A stretch of DNA of 51,276 bases from NCBI GenBank assembly GCA_026025795.1, contig JAPEUG010000088.1:1-51276 (forward strand), in the 5' to 3' direction. Each line of letters starts with the position of its first letter. Within the stretch, counting starts at the first letter, position 1. The translations under genes and the position numbers were made by a program. The notes under the pieces are model-generated. The model saw only the letters and a program-made list of their open reading frames with translations, had not been told where the DNA came from and made no database searches. This DNA is from Thelocarpon superellum (taxonomy: Eukaryota). Below, piece after piece: positions 2,540 to 48,604 of the stretch.

Positions 2540-4164
2540 TCATCTAAATCGTGCATACCATTCTTGTTCCTGCCGTCGCTGCTCGACAAGCTGAAGGACA
2601 GTGTCATTGTAGACTTCGGCCACGGGCTCGTGGCCCTTGAGCACCCTTTTCTCATGCGATGCTGCCTCCTCCTTGGTCATGCACACCAAGTCTCGGAAGC
2701 ATAAGCGGGTAAACTTCTGCCCATGCGTCCGCTTGTCCACCAAGTCCTCACCCGGCGCTTCCCACCTCACCAGCGCCAGCCGCGTTGATAAGCCGCTGAT
2801 CACGCTGCGGCCGCGGTAGACCTCCTCCACTAGATAGCCAACGTCGTCCCGGGTGACGGGAATCTTCAGTCCAATGACATCCTCGCCCATGGCACTGGCC
2901 AGACGCTCTTCCGAGCTTTGTAGGCTCGACAAGACGCTCTCGTACGTCTTCTCGCGTCCCTTGGCCGGGACTTCTTCATGTGGGTAGCGAGTGAGGTCGA
3001 GTATGACTTGGTTCGCCGCCGTGTAGCCAAAGACCGCCGGCATTGTCCCCAAGACCGGAAGGATACGGGCTCGAAAGTCTGGGAGCACTGAGAGCTCGCC
3101 CACGCCGCCTTTGACAAACTCTTCTTCCGGGAGCGGCAGCAGTTGTGCCTTGCCGGGACCGGGCTTCTCGGTCGAATACACCACTGGCACCCCCTTCTGC
3201 ACCCCGAGCGCCCGCAAGCGTCGTCGCGTGCTACGGGACAGAGGGTCTTCGATCGAGGCTGAGATGTCACCGACCGAGACTCGCGTCGGGTCGGACTTGC
3301 ACCCCGCGCCCATGGACGAGATCACCGGCAACGAATGTTTGACGCAATAGGCGAGGAGGGCCACTTTGCTGTCGACGTTGTCGATCGCGTCGATCACATA
3401 GTCCACCGCTTCTCCCGCGAAGGGCTGGAGTAGCCGCGAGGCGGCCGACTCGCTGAACAGCTCATTCCGGCAGTCAAAACGCACCCACGGCGTGACCTGC
3501 TCCAGTCGTCTCCGAATGCAATGCACCTTGGGCGTTCCGACATCCGCCAGCGTCGCCAGAGCGTGACGGTTCAAGGACGAAAGGGTGACTTGGTCAAAGT
3601 CGATCAGCCGGAGCTGACCCACGCCGGAGCGTGCCAGCGCCGCCGACGCGTGCGATCCCACTCCGCCGCACCCCACCACGATCACGCAAGACGCACGCAG
3701 CCTCCCCAGGCCGGCGTCGGTTAGGAAGACGCGGTTGCGCGCCAGCTGCTCGAGGATCAGCCCTGCATCCGTCGTCAGCGGCCAGCCCGAGACCGCGACG
3801 ACGGGTCAGGTCGGACACCTTGGTCATAGTCGCCCCGCTGCGCGCGTAGTGCCAGGGTCATGCCCTTCTCATCCTCCTCATTGAGCGTCACGTCGGACGA
3901 GGCAGCTCCATAGTCTGTGAGCTGTGCTTGCACCATGGGTCAGCGATGGTCTTGTTGGAGGGCGTGGTGAGGCCTGCCTACCTGATCAATGACATGCTCT
4001 TCGTCATCCCCAGGAATAGATCGCTTCAGGTCTTCCACCAGTGCTTGGCGTCGTACATGCTGATATCCAAGGATGGCTCCCGCCACCAGCGCCCCGGACA
4101 CGGCCGCCGTGGCTACTAGCTGGGCCTGGTGCGATCCAACCGTCCTTGAGATCCAAGACGACAT
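2540..4164 (-). CDS. TCD2: ThiF/E1-like tRNA threonylcarbamoyladenosine dehydratase (Tcd1/Tcd2 family)
   Basis: N-terminal hydrophobic anchor, then GCGGVGS, DFDQVTLSSLNRH, SSMGAG, DPLSR and PVLGTMP motifs. Introns 3981-3922 and 3818-3763. TCD1 versus TCD2 cannot be resolved. Confidence 0.9.
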
Positions 4165-4498
4165 GGTCTCCGGGTTTTGATCCTTGTCCTCCTCGGACTG
4201 ATCGGGCGCGACGTCGTTATGACCTCGAGACCCCATGGGCGACGTGATTGATGTGCATGATTGGGAAGGTTGCCAGGACTGCAGTCGGTTACTTCGGCCT
4301 ACGTCCAGCTGCTCAACCACACGTCGAGACGTCCAATCTCGAATACTTGCGTAATGGAGAGTGACTTACCCGGCTATCACACCTACGCTCGGATGAAAAG
4401 CTACCTGAGCTTCACAGCCTCGCCCATCAGGTCCAAGCAGGTGAGTCTTCAAGCTCGTCCGCCCTCCGGAAACCGCTGGCTAATCGTAGCTGAGCCCT

Positions 4499-4621
4499 TG
4501 ATCTCCGTGACGAGAAACTTCACCCAAGAGCTTCCATGACGCCCGACGCCCATCGCACTGTGCTACAGTGTCGCGCGGCGCTGGCAATGACTGAGCATGT
4601 GAACAGAGATCGGAGAGATCA
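4499..4621 (+). ncRNA. Candidate box C/D snoRNA with variant boxes (element 1)
   Basis: 7-bp terminal stem TGATCTC (4499-4505) / GAGATCA (4615-4621), 3-nt bulge, box C GTGACGA (4507-4513), box D CGGA (4611-4614). The box variants create a C-G pair in K-turn stem II. Lies 58 nt after a GTGAGT donor (4441). Confidence 0.55.
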
Positions 4622-4687
4622 TCCGCTTGGCCTTGCCCTAGACCCCACGACGGCGGATCAATCTCAGCCGGCAAGTCTGGTTTGGAA

Positions 4688-4754
4688 CGGCGCCGGTCGA
4701 CGATGAGTGACGTCCAAAGCCGAAGTGACGACACACAGCACATCGGAGGCGCCG
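4688..4754 (+). ncRNA. Candidate small box C/D-like (K-turn) RNA (element 2)
   Basis: 7-bp stem CGGCGCC / GGCGCCG; tandem GA pairs then a 5-bp stem II (CGATG/CATCG); box D CGGA (4744-4747); internal D'-like CCGA and C'-like GTGACGA. The bulge is 4 nt rather than 3. Confidence 0.4.
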
Positions 4755-4987
4755 GCAGCGCGCGAGAAGGCAGACATGTCGGTCTCGTGGCATGCAGGGC
4801 CGCGTATGACGAATGTCTTTTGTAGTTTTCAATCGCAGACGCGTCTTAGTAGGTCTTGGAGAACCGGATGGAGTATCTGCAACTAACACTGCTTTCCATA
4901 GCCATTCATCTACGACAAGCGCGCCGTCTCGAAGCCGGCTGCAAAGGTTGTGAACTTTTTCTCACGTGGCAGCGAGGGGTCAAAGGG

Positions 4988-5115
4988 CGAGGTCCAGTGA
5001 TGATTTTGAGTGTCATTAGCCAAATCTGCTAGCCAACCTGCCCGGCCACTATCAAGCATGGCTGGCTGGGCCAGTGTTTGCCATGATCACTGTGAGAGCT
5101 AATCTGAGGACCTTG
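4988..5115 (+). ncRNA. Box C/D snoRNA (element 4, canonical)
   Basis: Box C GTGATGA (4997-5003), box D CTGA (5104-5107), 8-bp terminal stem CGAGGTCC / GGACCTTG with a 3-nt bulge, extended stem II (GATT/AATC), internal hairpin GCCCGGCCA / TGGCTGGGC. Flanked by a putative donor (4947) and branch/acceptor (5161/5184). Confidence 0.78.
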
Positions 5116-6014
5116 GACACGAGGACCTAGTCGATGATTTCCACGGACGGAGATTCTCTTCTGATCTTGGCGTCTGGTATGTAGCAGAATAGACCCGTTT
5201 GTCGAAAAATTCATGGACGTGAGTGCTCATCAGTTGTTGTATTGCACAGGGACATGTAAGGGACAGGCGATGTCGCGAACACGATGGGAATTCAAAGTGA
5301 GGACGAGCAACAGAGTTTACGACATGGTGCATGTGGTGGAGGGCGCCACCAGTTGCTTGGCCCCCCCCCCGTCGCGCCACGCGGCGTCGGTCGAATTTCG
5401 GTTTGGTCCGCCCTTTCCGGCCACGCACCTTATCTTTGAATGGCCATCTGGAGGAAACGCGGACGACTTGTACCATTAAATACTCGTCCCACCCTTGCTG
5501 CCGGCACAGTGGCTCTTCACCCCTGATCCGGTGCCAGGAGAGGCGCATCCGGAGAGATCGAGCGTAATGCCGATGCAAGATTGATCACTGCTAGTACTAT
5601 TAATAGTGCCCGCACGAGGTACAATAATGGCACGAGTGTGATGGGATTGATGCGCATGGCCATGCCAGAGGTAATCTCCGACAGTACGTGGCGAGACGCC
5701 GAATGAGCGTTTGGACTCGTGTGGACTTGTGTGGGATCGTAGCGACCCATGAGGATTGCGACCGAACAACTCTTGGCATTGACGGATCCCTCATGTTGCG
5801 GAGCCGGTAGCTAAACTGTAACGCGCGGAAAGGATTACGACGCCTGTGTTGTTCGCCTCGATCTCCCTCCTAGCTAAGTAGTGCCAAACTACCAGCTCAG
5901 GATGTCTCCCCCCACAAACTTAACCTACAGGTCCCACCCACGCTACAGGTGCCATCCGCCTCTCAAATCTTGGCAGCTTCTGTCGACGAAGGCAGACCGT
6001 GGAGGTCGCGTGCC

Positions 6015-7545
6015 ATGCCTTTGCCATCACTCGCCGCGGACTCTGGGGACCACGGCGAGAGTGACGGAGCCGATCGACGACGTCCGGACCATCGTGATCG
6101 ACCGCCATCCCCCGGGCCCCTCCGCAAGACGCTGCCGACGCCGCTGCCGACGCCGACGCCGACGCCGACGTCGTTTCCCGCCTTACCCGCCGACTCGGCC
6201 CAGGGGTCTCGACCGAACAAGGTCGACCTCCCGATGGAGGACGACATGAGCTTCCGTCCGCCCGTCACCGCCTACCAGCCGTCACGCCCGCGATACCTCA
6301 TCGACCGGGTCAAGAACGAGTGGAGGAACAAAGCACGGTTCGGACCGGACGGAAGCTGGCCCGGCGACCACTCGGACGAGTGGATCTGCGAGATTATGAT
6401 TCGACCCTCGCGCTGGAAGCGGTCCGTCGTCGTGGTGCTCACTGTGCTCACCTTCTGCTGTATCTCCTACGTGCGGTGGGTACGACCATGGTGGTCCGAA
6501 CGATCGGCCTTGAACCATAGCCTACGACTAGACTCGCACGCCCCAGGCTATGGATGGTACGGCGTCAACGTGCGACCGCAGTTCTCCGACATGACCCAAG
6601 TCGGGGCCCTGAGCGAGAAGCTCCTGCCCACGACGCATCCAGAACCCATCGAAGGATCCCCAAAGGGCAGGCGGTTGATCTTTGTGGGTGACGTTCACGG
6701 ATGCAAGACCGAACGTGCGACGACCCCGGCGAAAGGCGGACCACCCATTGTGTCCATGCTAACGAGGAGAACAGTGGTCAAGCTACTGGAGGAAGTCGCC
6801 TTCTCCCCCGATACTGATCATCTCGTCTTCACCGGTGATCTCATCGCCAAGGGACCCGATCCCACCGGCGTCATCGACCTGGTTGACTCACTCGGCGCGT
6901 CGTGTGTGCGCGGCAACCACGAGGACCGCGTGCTCTTGGCCTACCGTGATCTCAACTCTCAGCACGTCCCGATCGTGGACAATGCGCACCCACCTGAGCA
7001 TGTCTTGGCCCGGTCGCTGACGTCCGAGCAAGCCAGATATCTGGGGGAGTGCCCGGTGATTCTCAAAGTCGGGAATCTCAGTGGCATGGGCGACGTCATA
7101 GTCGTGCACGGCGGCATCGTCCCGGGCATAGCGCTGGAAGACCAGGATCCCGTACACGTCATGACGATGCGCTCCATCGACCTTGACACGCATGTCCCAA
7201 GCGACAGCAAGGCCGGCACGCCATGGACCAAGGTCGGTTCCTCTCTCGCCTTCCCCTGGTCCTCCACATACTGACCCGCCACAGCTCTGGAACCACTTTC
7301 AGAAGCACCAAGCAACCGACGCCCGATCGACTGTCATCTACGGACACGACGCGAGCCGCGGCCTGACGATCAAGAAATACACCAAGGGCCTCGACAGCGG
7401 CTGCGTGCGCGGCGGCAAGTTGACGGCGCTGGTGATTGACGGCGGGGCCAAGAAGTTGTCGGAGAAGGTGGTCAGTGTCAAATGCAAGGACTATCGCACC
7501 CACCATGGCTCGCGTCGGCAGGTCCAGAGTCGGGAGCCGGAATGA
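6015..7545 (+). CDS. Calcineurin-like metallophosphoesterase with N-terminal TM segment (Ppn2/YNL217W-like)
   Basis: GDVHG, GDLIAKGP, RGNHE, VHGG, YGHDA and GLDSGC motifs. Introns 6715-6774 and 7233-7284. Start codon uncertain (6015 is the first in-frame ATG). Confidence 0.88.
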
Positions 7546-45785: not shown

Positions 45786-48604
45786 CTTGCTCGGGCAATC
45801 GAGTACGGCCTGTCAACAGGACTGGCACCCGTATTGGGGGAGAGACTGGGCGGCGCTCTAGCCGAGGAAAAGCTGCGCTCCGACGATGTCCGGCGTCGGG
45901 ATCTGCCGTGATGAGGGCCACGGGGTCGTGGTGTTGACGGCGATGCTGGAGGGAGGTTGATGATGGAGAAAGAGGAGGCCCGAGAGGTGAGGTTGGGGGT
46001 GGTGGTGAGAGAAACGCAGGCTTGCTCCGCACTTGGCGGCTGAGTAGACTCCGTGGCTTCCTGACCTTCAGGTTGCCCACATTACCCACACAGGACACCA
46101 CCGAGACAAAGCGGAGGGCTCGTGCGGGCGCGACGGTCCTCGGCAGGGCGGAAGGCACGAAGGAGGAAGTCGTGGGAAGTGGCCCGACTTAATACCGGGC
46201 CGGGTGTGGGCCTAGCTCGCCCGTCGCGATTCGTTTGGCTCGGCTTGGCAGTTCCACGGAGGAAACGATAGACGTCCCTGCGCGAAGCACCCAACCACGG
46301 TTTGTTCCACCACGCCTAACTAGAAACACTTAACAGCAAGGCCAGTAAGGCCGACCACGCCGATTGGGACTCAACCAGATGGACGGGCAGGCGGCATGAA
46401 GCACGGTCCGAGGGGCGCCCATGAAAACAAGAGGCGGATGGCTGGGATAGAGTGGGGGTGAGGGCGAGCTTAAGCACGAACATGAGCGTAAGCGTAAGCG
46501 TGAGCGTGAGCGTGAACGAAAGCGCGAATGATGTAGCGGTCAGGCCAATGCGGTATCCGGACGTCGGCCACTTGCTCCACTTCGCTCCATCTGCCATACG
46601 AGAACGAGGGCTGCCCCGTCGTGGATGCATGCAGGCCTACCAACTTGCGCAAGATTACGAGTCAGATTGAGCCGGGAACGACAACGGTCGCAGGCTGAGA
46701 TCGCAAGCGGACCGGCCCAGGCCGCGAAGGAGGCCGAGGGCCCGGTGTCTGCCCTTCCTTGCCTGGTTGCACCACAGGCTCCCCTTCTCCGTCCCTGCGC
46801 TTCGCAGATCGGGCCCATGGACGAATCCGAGCAGCGAAGGAGAGGGCATCAACGAATGGCCGCACGCCCACACGCACACGCGCAGGGCATGACGGGTGCA
46901 CCTCACTGACCACTCTGAACCACCGGCGTACCATCGGGTAGTCCTCGGGAAATAGCCGAGGGCACAGGACGCAAGCCTCTCCCGCAAGCAAGTCGCCGCC
47001 GAAGCTTCCCTGTGTTTCCTCTCGCCAGTGGATCTTCCCACGCCGCGCGTACCGGCCACCCCTCCAATTCCGAGCGACGAGTGGTCCAACGCGTTGCAGC
47101 CATGATGGCGACCGCCCACGCTAACATCGCCGCGCCGCCCGCCGTCATCCACGGCTGTCAGATTTCTATTTCCGGTAGTGACGGTGGCCATCCTCCTGCC
47201 AACCACATTCCGCCTTCGTCCAACACCTCCGTTCAGAGACAGATTGCATGACGTCGTGACTACGATTACTCGGTCCACGGGAAGAGGGCAGTCGGGCCAA
47301 CGCATGCGTCTTCTCATGTGCTATCGTGCTCGGCCGCTAAGGCAAGGTCCGGATGTTCCACGGTCGGGTTGGTTTGGATGGATGCAACACGGCGTCATGC
47401 ACGAGATTGGCCGACAGGACCAGTCTTGGGGAGAGATGAATAGTGGAGCCCACAACAACGAGGGAACGAATCGCGACGAGTCGCATGCCGTCAGGTGTGT
47501 GGTTGTGATGCGATGTTAACGCGGTCGAGGGCGGAGAGGGACATGGTCGGTACGGCTGGGGGGCCGTCCAAAGACCACCCTATGTTTCAGCCTTCCGTAG
47601 ACCCCGCCCAGACCCTGCACACAGGGGACGTGACACAGGATCCGCAAAATGAGGGATGAGAGCCCCAACGCCGTCTACTGTCCAGGGCAGGCGGCACTTC
47701 GATCGACGTGCGTCCCGCCGTCCTGAGACGGAGGGCGAGACCAAGCAAGAGGGCGCGACGCTCCTTCGGGTGATTCGAGCACTCGAGAACATACTCAGGC
47801 GAGCCCTTTCGAACGCCCCGGTGAAGCTTCCAGGAGCATTGTTGCCAGCGGTCCTGGACAGCGAGCGTGCCTCCGTTGGGTTAGGCAGCTGTACGTCGGT
47901 GTGTTACGTATGCCCACTGCTGGAAGGTTCGGATTCCCTGCCTGGAGGCAGTTCGTAGCCGCGGTTATCAATTGCGGCCCACTCCTTGGGAAGGATCTCT
48001 GTGTGGTTCAAACCACCAACGCCTCCCTCCCTTTCATACCACCCAACTGCCTCTTTAAATCCAACGGCCAACCCTGCGTTGCGTTATCACGATCGACGTA
48101 GGGCCCTGTACGAAGCCAACGCGGGGAGACCCCAGCACGAGTGCATCCACATCAACGACGACGTCAACATCCACGTCCACGTCCACGTCCAGATTCACGC
48201 TCCCATGCGCGAACGTGACCCGTTCCTTTCCCCTGGCCTACGAGTACTCGTGCCTGGCAGGGGCGTGTGCAAGGTCGATCAGTCAGCCACGCTGAGGAAT
48301 GCAACTAGCTTCCAAATGTCTCATACCGTAGATTCCGGCATTCCAGTGGACCATCACGTGGACGAAAGGAGACGGCTGCGAGCAAGGTACCTTGCTTCTG
48401 ATAGACATAGAAATGACAGCGGGGAGATGCATTGGATATGGATTAACGGCCATTAGATCTACCGCCGCAGTCCTCAGGAGGTCGTTTGACGGGGCCCCCC
48501 ATGTTCCACGCCTCTTTCGTACTTGATCCCCCCTCCACGCCACAGATGTTGATGCTCCCAGTATATGCGCCGACGCAAGGGCCACGAGGCAAATACCCCG
48601 CTGT

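Follow-up and report, generated by a model that had tools for sequence, protein, structure and literature searches.

The window analyzed here is a contig of Thelocarpon superellum, 51,276 nt long, in which a group of short units on the + strand occupies a locus at 4.5-5.1 kb, between a tRNA-modification gene (TCD) and a phosphoesterase gene. TCD is a ThiF-family gene (Pfam ThiF, E 6.5e-46) with its main exon at 2540-3805 on the - strand. The gap between the two genes had been described, in an earlier note made from the sequence, as holding no credible protein. Five open reading frames of 92-161 amino acids lie in it or overlap it, and none of them matches a family in Pfam, the database used for this check. 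On the + strand, no frame in the gap is longer than 104 amino acids, and the spliced transcript described below has no long open reading frame. There are four units with a box C/D-like layout, at 4499-4621 (unit 1), 4688-4754 (unit 2), 4801-4843 (unit 3) and 4988-5115 (unit 4), and their terminal stems of 7, 7, 5 and 8 bp, respectively, directly follow the D box or D-like box. The earlier note had proposed units with exactly these boundaries, and we found all of the motifs that it named at the positions given there. In our view the 4.5-5.1 kb stretch is likely to be a polycistronic, non-coding gene for box C/D snoRNAs, on the + strand and divergent from ThiF/TCD, with its units in exons. The cluster is real and of a known kind, an ordinary gene type common to many fungi. 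Three of the four units have unusual box sequences, and for those three no targets have been found so far.

Unit 4 is a canonical box C/D snoRNA. It has an 8-bp terminal stem (4988-4995 with 5108-5115), a C box GTGATGA (4997-5003; RUGAUGA in general form) near the 5' end, and a D box CTGA (5104-5107; CUGA in RNA) near the 3' end, immediately preceded by the D guide AGAGCTAAT (5095-5103). Between these lie the conserved sequence AGCCAAAT (5018-5025), a D'-like CTGC (5026-5029) followed by an internal hairpin, and a C'-like ATGATCA (5083-5089). A stem of at least 8 bp was found in 9 of 200 dinucleotide shuffles (mean 0.045 per window). When both strands of the 51-kb window were scanned for strict C/D boxes, there were only two matches, unit 4 among them.

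The earlier note had named a lack of conserved boxes or stems in related species among the findings that would speak against its reading. A metagenome scan with a pattern taken from unit 4 (the C box, then 75-105 nt, then 14 nt made up of guide and D box) recovered 67 loci. These represent 49 distinct sequences, all but one of which (L047/L092) share the architecture, and 45 distinct homologues of unit 4 were identified in which the layout is the same and the stems covary. The terminal stem was 99.5% paired, with three of four pairs changed on both sides, that is, with compensatory changes; the internal stem was 89% paired, with four of seven pairs changed on both sides. These values were reached in none of 500 shuffles, and slid controls were paired at 23-46%. 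The alignment columns of the C box and of the guide plus D box are fixed by the search pattern. The D' and C' boxes are degenerate across homologues (YTGC; TGAGAA or ATGATCA). A ThiF-family homologue was present in 25 of the 67 loci, in 22 of them upstream and on the opposite strand. The head-to-head arrangement with TCD, also claimed earlier, recurs in 22 of the 48 loci with 1200 nt or more of upstream sequence.

Two further elements of 11-13 nt, B and A, neither of which was part of the search pattern, are conserved upstream of unit 4. Element B (GAACAGAGATC) was exact in 21 of 46 loci and had at most one mismatch in 32. Its counterpart here is unit 1 (unit B), which has a 7-bp stem (5' arm 4499-4505, 3' arm 4615-4621) that is closed in the MFE fold, a spacer C at 4506, a C-like GTGACGA (4507-4513), a C'-like ATGACTGA (4587-4594), the conserved element TGAACAGAGAT (4600-4610) and a D-like CGGA (4611-4614). 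In 19 of the 32 loci the terminal stem reached 5 bp or more; 200 arm-swap controls gave 3.0 such loci on average and 9 at most. The stem covaries, one spacer nucleotide always precedes RUGAnGA, and the CNNA box leads directly into the 3' arm. TGACGA was found upstream of the element in 17 of 32 loci (background expectation 4%), and the D-like box was CTTA in 20 of 32.

Element A is the 11-mer AGTTTTCAATC; of 46 distinct loci, 40 have it upstream of unit 4, at a distance of 88-346 nt. The tetramer after it is CGGA in 30 of 39 loci, and TGACGA occurs upstream of it in 18 of 39, again against a background expectation of 4%. Near the 5' end of unit A, homologues have RTGACGA, then 11-14 nt, then a D'-like CTGA, CGGA or CTTGA. 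The terminal stem of unit A was not above control (9 of 39 loci had at least 5 bp, and controls averaged 4.1 such loci, with up to 9). In the window, unit 3 corresponds to the 3' half of unit A: it has a 5-bp stem (4801-4805 and 4839-4843), a C- or C'-like ATGACGA (4806-4812), the conserved element TAGTTTTCAATC (4823-4834) and a D-like CGCA (4834-4837). Unit 2 is a compact C/D-like hairpin (fold z -2.06) with a 7-bp stem (4688-4694 with 4748-4754), a C-like ACGATGA (4700-4706), a D'-like CCGA (4720-4723), a C'-like GTGACGA (4725-4731) and a D-like CGGA (4744-4747); its two spacers are 13 nt and 12 nt long, the second at 4732-4743. Positions 4725-4747 of unit 2 have their counterpart in unit A of other fungi, namely in its C box, its first guide and its D' box. 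No 11-mer of 4612-4817 recurred in three or more of the homologous loci.

Judged from sequence, units 2 and 3 are probably descendants of one snoRNA that is a single unit in other fungi, and in this genome the ancestral unit A would exist as two halves, each with its own closing stem. On the basis of this one sequence, units 2 and 3 may be separate RNAs. The earlier count of three to four closed units holds in that all are present, and units 2 and 3 are probably not two old genes. The cluster would have three ancestral units, namely B (unit 1), A (units 2 and 3) and the canonical 125-nt snoRNA (unit 4), and in homologous loci the order from B through A to unit 4 is kept at conserved distances.

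The earlier note had proposed a comparison with Rfam, and this was unproductive: no family matched any unit, with zero matches at the gathering score in the window and 15 homologous loci and no match at E values up to 5 in 16 loci. Fold z-scores of the units are modest, from -0.4 to -2.1. Both results would fit motifs that are functionless chance features of a GC-rich intergenic region. That explanation is already contradicted by the 45 distinct covarying homologues, the conserved neighboring elements and the RNA contigs described below, and we regard it as extremely improbable. The claim of an unannotated same-strand cluster of guide-RNA-like genes is supported, and the cluster is conserved in many fungi.

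Units 1-3 fall outside the strict definition of the C/D boxes: in place of box C they have UGACGA or CGAUGA, and in place of box D, CGGA or CGCA. Across loci the upstream units have RUGAnGA (mostly UGACGA) and CNNA, and in the D-like boxes of B and A the G of CUGA is often missing. These non-canonical boxes, together with the absence of a target in the rRNAs searched, the unit A stem that is no better than control, and an RNA contig that has unit 3 sequence only within a longer precursor, would fit a different explanation, in which unit 4 is the only snoRNA. The elements conserved in units 1-3 would then act in cis, as processing hairpins of the precursor, nuclease or termination signals, or parts of a shared promoter, and would not be separate trans-acting RNAs. 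We think this unlikely, because in 19 of 32 loci unit B combines the full C/D layout with a stem that covaries, the most highly conserved bases are at the guide position directly 5' of the D-like box, and in many A units the C-like box is followed after 11-14 nt by a D'-like box.

RNA contigs document transcription and splicing of the region. A 234-nt contig (2 differences) joins 4822-4848, a short side of 27 nt, to 4902-5108 with GT..AG ends. The sequence removed is a 53-nt spliceosomal intron at 4849-4901 on the + strand, between unit 3 and unit 4, with donor GTAGGT (4849), branch site ACTAAC (4882-4887) and acceptor TAG (4901). The prediction that spliced RNA is made from the region is thus borne out by one junction, 4848 to 4902. 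Of the splice signals listed in the earlier note, ACTAAC at 4882 and TAG at 4901 have RNA support, and the donor is at 4849, not at 4441 or 4671. Unit 4 and the last part of unit 3 are present on the same contig and are therefore co-transcribed, and the units lie on one strand with short spacers, as in a polycistronic cluster. Because the two RNA runs gave identical contigs, we count them as one observation, and RNA levels cannot be read from contigs. Runs X1 and X2 had no cover over 4500-4800, which is evidence neither way. A contig of 123-143 nt from a relative matches 5073-5110 and then continues into adapter-like sequence, presumably the Illumina adapter. This places an RNA 3' end 2-3 nt downstream of the D box and is a hint of a stable small RNA.

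The only supported intron falls between units, and therefore the snoRNAs lie in exons of a polycistronic precursor. It had been suggested that the units are intron-encoded, and a UHG-like spliced host with every unit in its own intron would have precedent in Neurospora crassa, in which 45 of 55 C/D snoRNAs are intron-encoded and some have non-coding hosts (PMC2780460). CTGAT at 5161 and TAG at 5184 are also present downstream of unit 4. We judge such a host very unlikely at this locus. The intron at 4849-4901 holds no unit, and the 234-nt contig runs straight from 4902 to 5108 through the donor proposed at 4947 (AAG/GTTGTG), GTTGTG being a poor donor. Among 43 homologous loci, only one had both a donor-like signal and a branch-and-acceptor signal around unit 4, and in 26 of 41 loci the stretch from element A to unit 4 was free of intron-like signals. 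In the other 15, the window included, such a signal starts 10-17 nt after element A. A possible leader intron (GTGAGT..CTAAT..TAG, 4441-4489, + strand), which is a prediction only, would end 10 nt before unit 1. Leader-intron-like signals ending within 25 nt of unit B were found in only 4 of 21 homologues, and the one in the window was not counted because just 2 nt separate its branch site from the TAG.

The exonic, polycistronic arrangement suggests how the units would mature. The precursor is spliced at 4849-4901, and the C and D boxes beside the terminal stem would fold a kink-turn in each unit, to which Snu13, Nop56, Nop58 and fibrillarin would bind. Because the units lie in exons, we propose that endo- and exonucleases free them by trimming the precursor back to the bound core proteins, without intron debranching. 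In the C/D motif of A and B, the first G.A, G-C and A-U pairs are invariant and the second and third positions vary. Kt-23-type ribosomal kink-turns have a second pair that is not G.A; units A and B are like them in their variable second pair, the Kt-23 examples being ribosomal. We met no description of this pattern for terminal C/D motifs of snoRNAs in the literature, which was consulted without a targeted search.

An LSU hairpin, which we take to be H77 of the L1 stalk, has a loop and 3' strand whose sequence matches element B (GAACAGAAAUC(U)) exactly and in the same sense. Because the sense is the same, B could be a mimic or competitor of this element during 60S assembly, and B and A would then be a distinct class of kink-turn RNAs and not methylation guides. 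It would fit the terminal motif of B and A, reduced to the first G.A, G-C and A-U pairs (RUGAnGA with CNNA), and the outcome for their ultra-conserved elements, for which the rRNAs tested held no antisense match save weak ones to unit A. We find this proposal doubtful. The same identity prompted a minus-strand reading of the cluster, which we rejected because there are no C/D boxes on that strand, the G/A variation of B fits pairing with U when the + strand is read, and the intron is GT..AG on the + strand.

If the units are guides, the conserved 9-13 nt beside the D box would pair with a conserved RNA. Box C/D guides pair with rRNA or snRNA through 10-21 nt beside D or D', with the target at the fifth pair. 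The search for such targets covered rRNAs only, from protist and contaminant contigs and not from fungi. For unit 4, the LSU segment ATTGGCUCU is the only candidate, and a weak one: the duplex with LSU ATTGGCTCT is 9 bp with one G.U and was found in eight LSU loci and L108, and two other matches of at least 9 bp were present in one 6-kb rRNA set. The paired G of LSU AUUGGCUCU may be the target position. An assignment of the unit 4 D guide to yeast 25S Gm2288 (the snR75 site) was withdrawn after the numbering was re-derived from the H69 pseudouridine spacing; we assume that yeast 25S A2280, A2281 and G2288 lie in GUAGCCAAAUGCCUCGUCAUC. Internal matches of 10-11 bp to GGGAUAAGGAU in L048 and L061 are taken as chance. 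In the same protist and contaminant-contig rRNAs, unit B and the spacers of unit 2 gave no duplex of at least 9 bp, and unit A gave weak matches only. A scan of viral contigs for an rDNA primer gave no match.

These results add a widely conserved fungal snoRNA cluster that Rfam models miss and of which scanners for canonical boxes would detect just one of the three to four units. The box variants, which are kept across lineages, are a natural test set for what a C/D kink-turn requires, and the division of an ancestral unit into two halves, each closed by itself, would illustrate how guide modules separate in evolution. If the targets prove to be conserved rRNA or snRNA sites, they would be new modification sites in filamentous fungi.

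Unit 4 may be compared with the snR13 family, of which Nc CD1 is 125 nt long, like unit 4 (PMC2780460). A northern probe for yeast snR13 implies GCCAAAUC within that RNA (PMC5389607), which resembles the invariant AGCCAAAU of unit 4. A search of unit 4 for a conserved guide to the snR13 target brought up none, only 2 of 46 sequences pairing over at least 10 bp; the segment used was not the snR13 site, and the result therefore has no bearing on snR13. Kinship of unit 4 with the snR13/Nc CD1 family, for which there is no Rfam match, is a lead only.

The N. crassa clusters are likewise filamentous-fungal, consist of C/D snoRNAs only, and have spliced hosts with only short open reading frames (PMC2780460). 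They mostly have one member per intron, whereas the supported intron here holds none, and one of them also has an exon-encoded member, CD6. Like the polycistronic clusters of budding yeast and the snR72-78 cluster of Ascomycota (PMC2780460, PMC5824354), the cluster described here has several C/D snoRNAs on the same strand, separated by spacers of roughly 60-330 nt, with order and spacing kept across lineages. It differs from them in its members and in having a short spacer intron in some lineages.

Scanning both strands of the 51-kb window for strict box C/D RNAs (RTGATGA, 55-160 nt, CTGA, and flanks pairing over at least 4 bp) gave two matches. One of these is unit 4 (4988-5115), the last of four guide-RNA-like units that the earlier note had placed at 4499-4621, 4688-4754, 4801-4843 and 4988-5115 (units 1 to 4). 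It has an 8-bp stem, and stems of at least 8 bp occurred in 9 of 200 dinucleotide-preserving shuffles (mean 0.045 per window). The second match, at 45902-46048 on the plus strand (GTGATGA .. CTGA, 136 nt), has a 5-bp stem; about two matches per window with a stem of at least 4 bp are expected by chance from the shuffles.

We scanned metagenomes with a pattern based on unit 4 (C box, a 75-105-nt gap, 14 nt guide plus D box) and recovered 67 loci with 49 distinct sequences. A single architecture is common to all distinct sequences except one (L047/L092), and L047, which lacks it, was rejected as a chance match. From the 5' end, this architecture consists of a terminal stem, the C box, an invariant AGCCAA within A-rich flanks, a YTGC motif, a GGCAGCC/GGTTGTC stem enclosing a variable hairpin, and a TGAGAA motif. 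The columns of the C box and the guide/D box were set by the search pattern and are no proof of conservation; the remaining columns are independent of it. Covariation was counted on an alignment of the window with 45 homologues. In the terminal stem, 99.5% of cells were paired and both sides had changed in three of four pairs (CG to UA in 15 and 6 sequences, GC to AU in 3). In the internal stem, 89% of cells were paired and both sides had changed in four of seven pairs. None of 500 shuffles equaled these values, slid controls were 23-46% paired, and the terminal stem was recovered independently by RNAalifold. We conclude that unit 4 is a genuine box C/D snoRNA and is conserved.

Units 1-3 were missed by the strict scan because their boxes deviate from the consensus. 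All motifs listed in the earlier note are present at their positions by direct reading, and the sequence and folds bear out its description of the closing stems of units 1-3 as directly following the D-like box. MFE folds close the stems of all four units, with fold z-scores of only -0.4 to -2.1. When 11-mers of 4165-5870 were checked for recurrence in the loci homologous to unit 4, those recurring outside unit 4 formed two islands only: element A (TAGTTTTCAATCG, 4823-4835, within unit 3), present in as many as 40 of 46 distinct loci, and element B (TGAACAGAGATC, 4600-4611, within unit 1), in up to 21 of 46. Element A lies 88-346 nt and element B 252-453 nt upstream of unit 4, in constant order and on the same strand. 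No 11-mer of 4612-4817 was common to at least three of the homologous loci searched. Element A is missing in six loci: L041, L043 and L080 (less than 210 nt upstream), the chance match L047, L038, and one copy in L053. The last belongs to a metagenome contig (L053/L054) with two inverted copies of unit 4 about 930 nt apart, each with its own element B.

The layout of unit B (unit 1 in the window) was drawn from 32 loci with element B, allowing one mismatch. Its 5' part comprises a 5' arm, exactly one spacer nucleotide, RUGAnGA (found as GTGACGA, ATGACGA, ATGCAGA, ATGAAGA and TTGAGGA), a semi-conserved TCA..GAGCT and a variable loop. This is followed by ATGAnTGA, about 5 nt, GAACAGA(G/A)AT, a tetramer CNNA (CTTA in 20 loci, CTGA in 5, CGGA in 3, CGTA in 2 and CGCA in 2) and a 3' arm that can pair with the 5' arm. 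Covarying arm pairs include CCTGC/GCAGG, GACTC/GAGTC, CTCCC/GGGAG, 10 bp of GCGACCCAAC/GTTGGGTCGC and, in the window, TGATCTC/GAGATCA. Stems of at least 5 bp formed in 19 of 32 loci; swapping 3' arms among loci gave a mean of 3.0 and a maximum of 9 (200 trials). By eye, L053, L060, L067, L072, L073, L075, L084, L095, L101 and L103 share a TCGCGTC-like motif some 45-55 nt before unit B; in the window, the 60 nt preceding unit 1 do not show it. This motif may serve the cluster as a promoter or start-site element.

Unit A, the ancestral unit that matches units 2 and 3, has the following layout in many loci: RTGACGA, 11-14 nt, CTGA, CGGA or CTTGA, a loop, a C'-like motif, about 10 nt, TAGTTTTCAAT and CGGA. 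Its terminal stem was no better than the control (9 of 39 loci had at least 5 bp; in the control the mean was 4.1 and the maximum 9). On the plus strand of the window, unit 2 has GTGACGA (4725-4731), a 12-nt spacer and CGGA (4744-4747), resembling the 5' module of unit A elsewhere (in L044: ATGACGA, CAAACAGCACACGT, CTGA). Unit 3, also on the plus strand, has ATGACGA (4806-4812) followed by the conserved element and corresponds to the 3' module. Each module is closed by its own stem in the window (7 bp, 4688-4694/4748-4754; 5 bp, 4801-4805/4839-4843). From these correspondences, we think that units 2 and 3 are two halves of one ancestral snoRNA, an arrangement seen in one sequence. Unit 2 can also be read as a compact C/D RNA, with an additional C-like ACGATGA (4700-4706) and a D'-like CCGA (4720-4723).

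The variant boxes recur. TGACGA is found upstream of element A in 18 of 39 loci and of element B in 17 of 32, compared to about 4% expected from its frequency elsewhere in the loci. The D-like tetramer of unit A is CGGA in 30 of 39 loci, CGTA in 5, and CGGG, CAGA, CGGC and CGCA in 1 each. Under the pairing scheme established for C/D kink-turns, units A and B keep the first sheared G.A, G-C and A-U pairs invariant, with the second and third positions varying; the A-U pair uses the T preceding the D-like box. UGACGA together with CGGA would place C-G where U.U is usual.

Two metatranscriptome runs (X1 and X2) share about 7% of sampled words with the DNA, and RNA contigs from both were placed on 3500-6500. 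The contigs and depths here are identical, and we therefore treat the runs as one observation. The runs are filed under different studies and years; they may be the same data or share a common contaminant. A 234-nt contig with two differences covers 4902-5108, and its other 27 nt end at 4848. It omits 4849-4901, a 53-nt intron with GT..AG ends. The ACTAAC at 4882 and TAG at 4901 previously proposed as splice signals are thus used, with GTAGGT at 4849 as donor in place of those suggested at 4441 and 4671. The contig runs unbroken across 4947, where a second donor had been proposed, and through unit 4. A 143-nt contig matches only 5073-5110, with six differences, followed by 20 further letters that we take to be Illumina adapter; compared by eye, the 30 letters preceding the match look similar to an internal hairpin found in one group of homologues. 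We read this contig as a relative's RNA of about 123 nt ending 2-3 nt past the D box.

In 15 of 41 loci, including the window, element A is followed after 10-17 nt by an intron-like signal (donor, CTRAY branch site and YAG acceptor, spanning 46-71 nt), which was not found there in the other 26. Of 43 loci, one has donor-like and branch-plus-acceptor signals together on the two sides of unit 4. Four of 21 loci suggest a leader intron whose end lies immediately before unit B; in the window, GTGAGT 4441 to TAG 4489 as such an intron is only a possibility. The earlier placement of the units, one per intron of a spliced non-coding host, does not hold: since the supported intron lies between units and signals around unit 4 are rare, the units lie in exons of a polycistronic precursor, whose spacer intron is lineage-specific.

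The neighboring genes are a ThiF-family tRNA-modification gene, TCD (2540-3805, minus strand; Pfam ThiF, E 6.5e-46), and a metallophosphoesterase gene (5874-7274, plus strand; Pfam Metallophos, E 6.3e-12). TCD homologues (67-84% protein identity) occur in 25 of 67 loci. The divergent arrangement noted before recurs: TCD is upstream on the opposite strand in 22 loci, out of 48 that extend 1200 nt or more upstream, and downstream on the same strand in 3 loci. The phosphoesterase neighbor recurs in one locus. In L038 (322-450), L056, L039 (1236-1360) and L057, the strand of unit 4 carries a further box C/D candidate, located about 650-1090 nt upstream. The D guide of this candidate, CAAGAATGGATAT, is conserved across three lineages and was not found in the window at up to 2 mismatches.

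Guides were compared with eukaryotic LSU pieces from contaminant contigs of prokaryote assemblies (found with a published primer as pattern; not fungal) and two protist rDNA contigs from one bin. The D guide of unit 4, AGAGCTAAT, directly 5' of the D box, forms 9 bp (one G.U) with ATTGGCTCT, in the conserved LSU context ..cttcgggataagg-ATTGGCTCT. This pairing is present in 8 LSU loci and in L108, whose 6-kb rRNA set holds two other matches of at least 9 bp; ATTGGCTCT is therefore a candidate target and no more. An initial assignment of this guide to yeast Gm2288 was an error and is withdrawn. L108 belongs to G001 (L105-L110), a bin filed as a Saccharibacteria MAG. It has several eukaryotic rDNA contigs, with 3 strong 5.8S matches and with complete SSU and LSU that contain group I introns, and the assembly thus looks contaminated. 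In 20 of 29 loci the D'-side element of unit 4 pairs with GTTTGGCT, over only 8 bp. In the protist and contaminant rRNA, unit B and unit 2 spacers had no pairing of at least 9 bp, and unit A had G.U-rich pairings only. Of 29 LSU-like loci, 13 contain, in the same sense, the A variant of the unit 1 element (4600-4611), GAACAGAAATC; it lies there within a conserved hairpin (..gaGAACAGAAATCtc..) to which the element has no antisense relation. LSU loci with GAACAGAAATC are L005, L007, L010, L011, L014, L023, L027, L029-L031, L033 and L035.

The earlier note identified the units correctly, including the odd-boxed ones, and its divergent TCD neighbor and its splicing are borne out; its intron placement and donor sites are not. 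The snoRNA cluster, of a known kind, is real, conserved and unannotated, with variant boxes, orphan guides and a same-sense LSU match as its unusual points. Rfam gave nothing at gathering score in the window, and only two chance-level matches (E 2-4) on 4100-5900; among homologues, nothing was found at E up to 5 for any unit (16 loci) or at gathering score (15 loci). No description of this cluster was found in the main texts of the literature searched. Nc CD1 is given as a 125-nt homologue of snR13 in PMC2780460, and GCCAAAUC, implied for snR13 by a probe printed in PMC5389607, resembles an invariant sequence of unit 4; a relation to snR13/CD1 is a lead, nothing more. Divergent C'/D' motifs and extra base-pairing are described for yeast in PMC3116282 and PMC5389607. 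The fungal snoRNAome includes a conserved cluster that, like the present one, is polycistronic but is made up of other families (PMC5824354).
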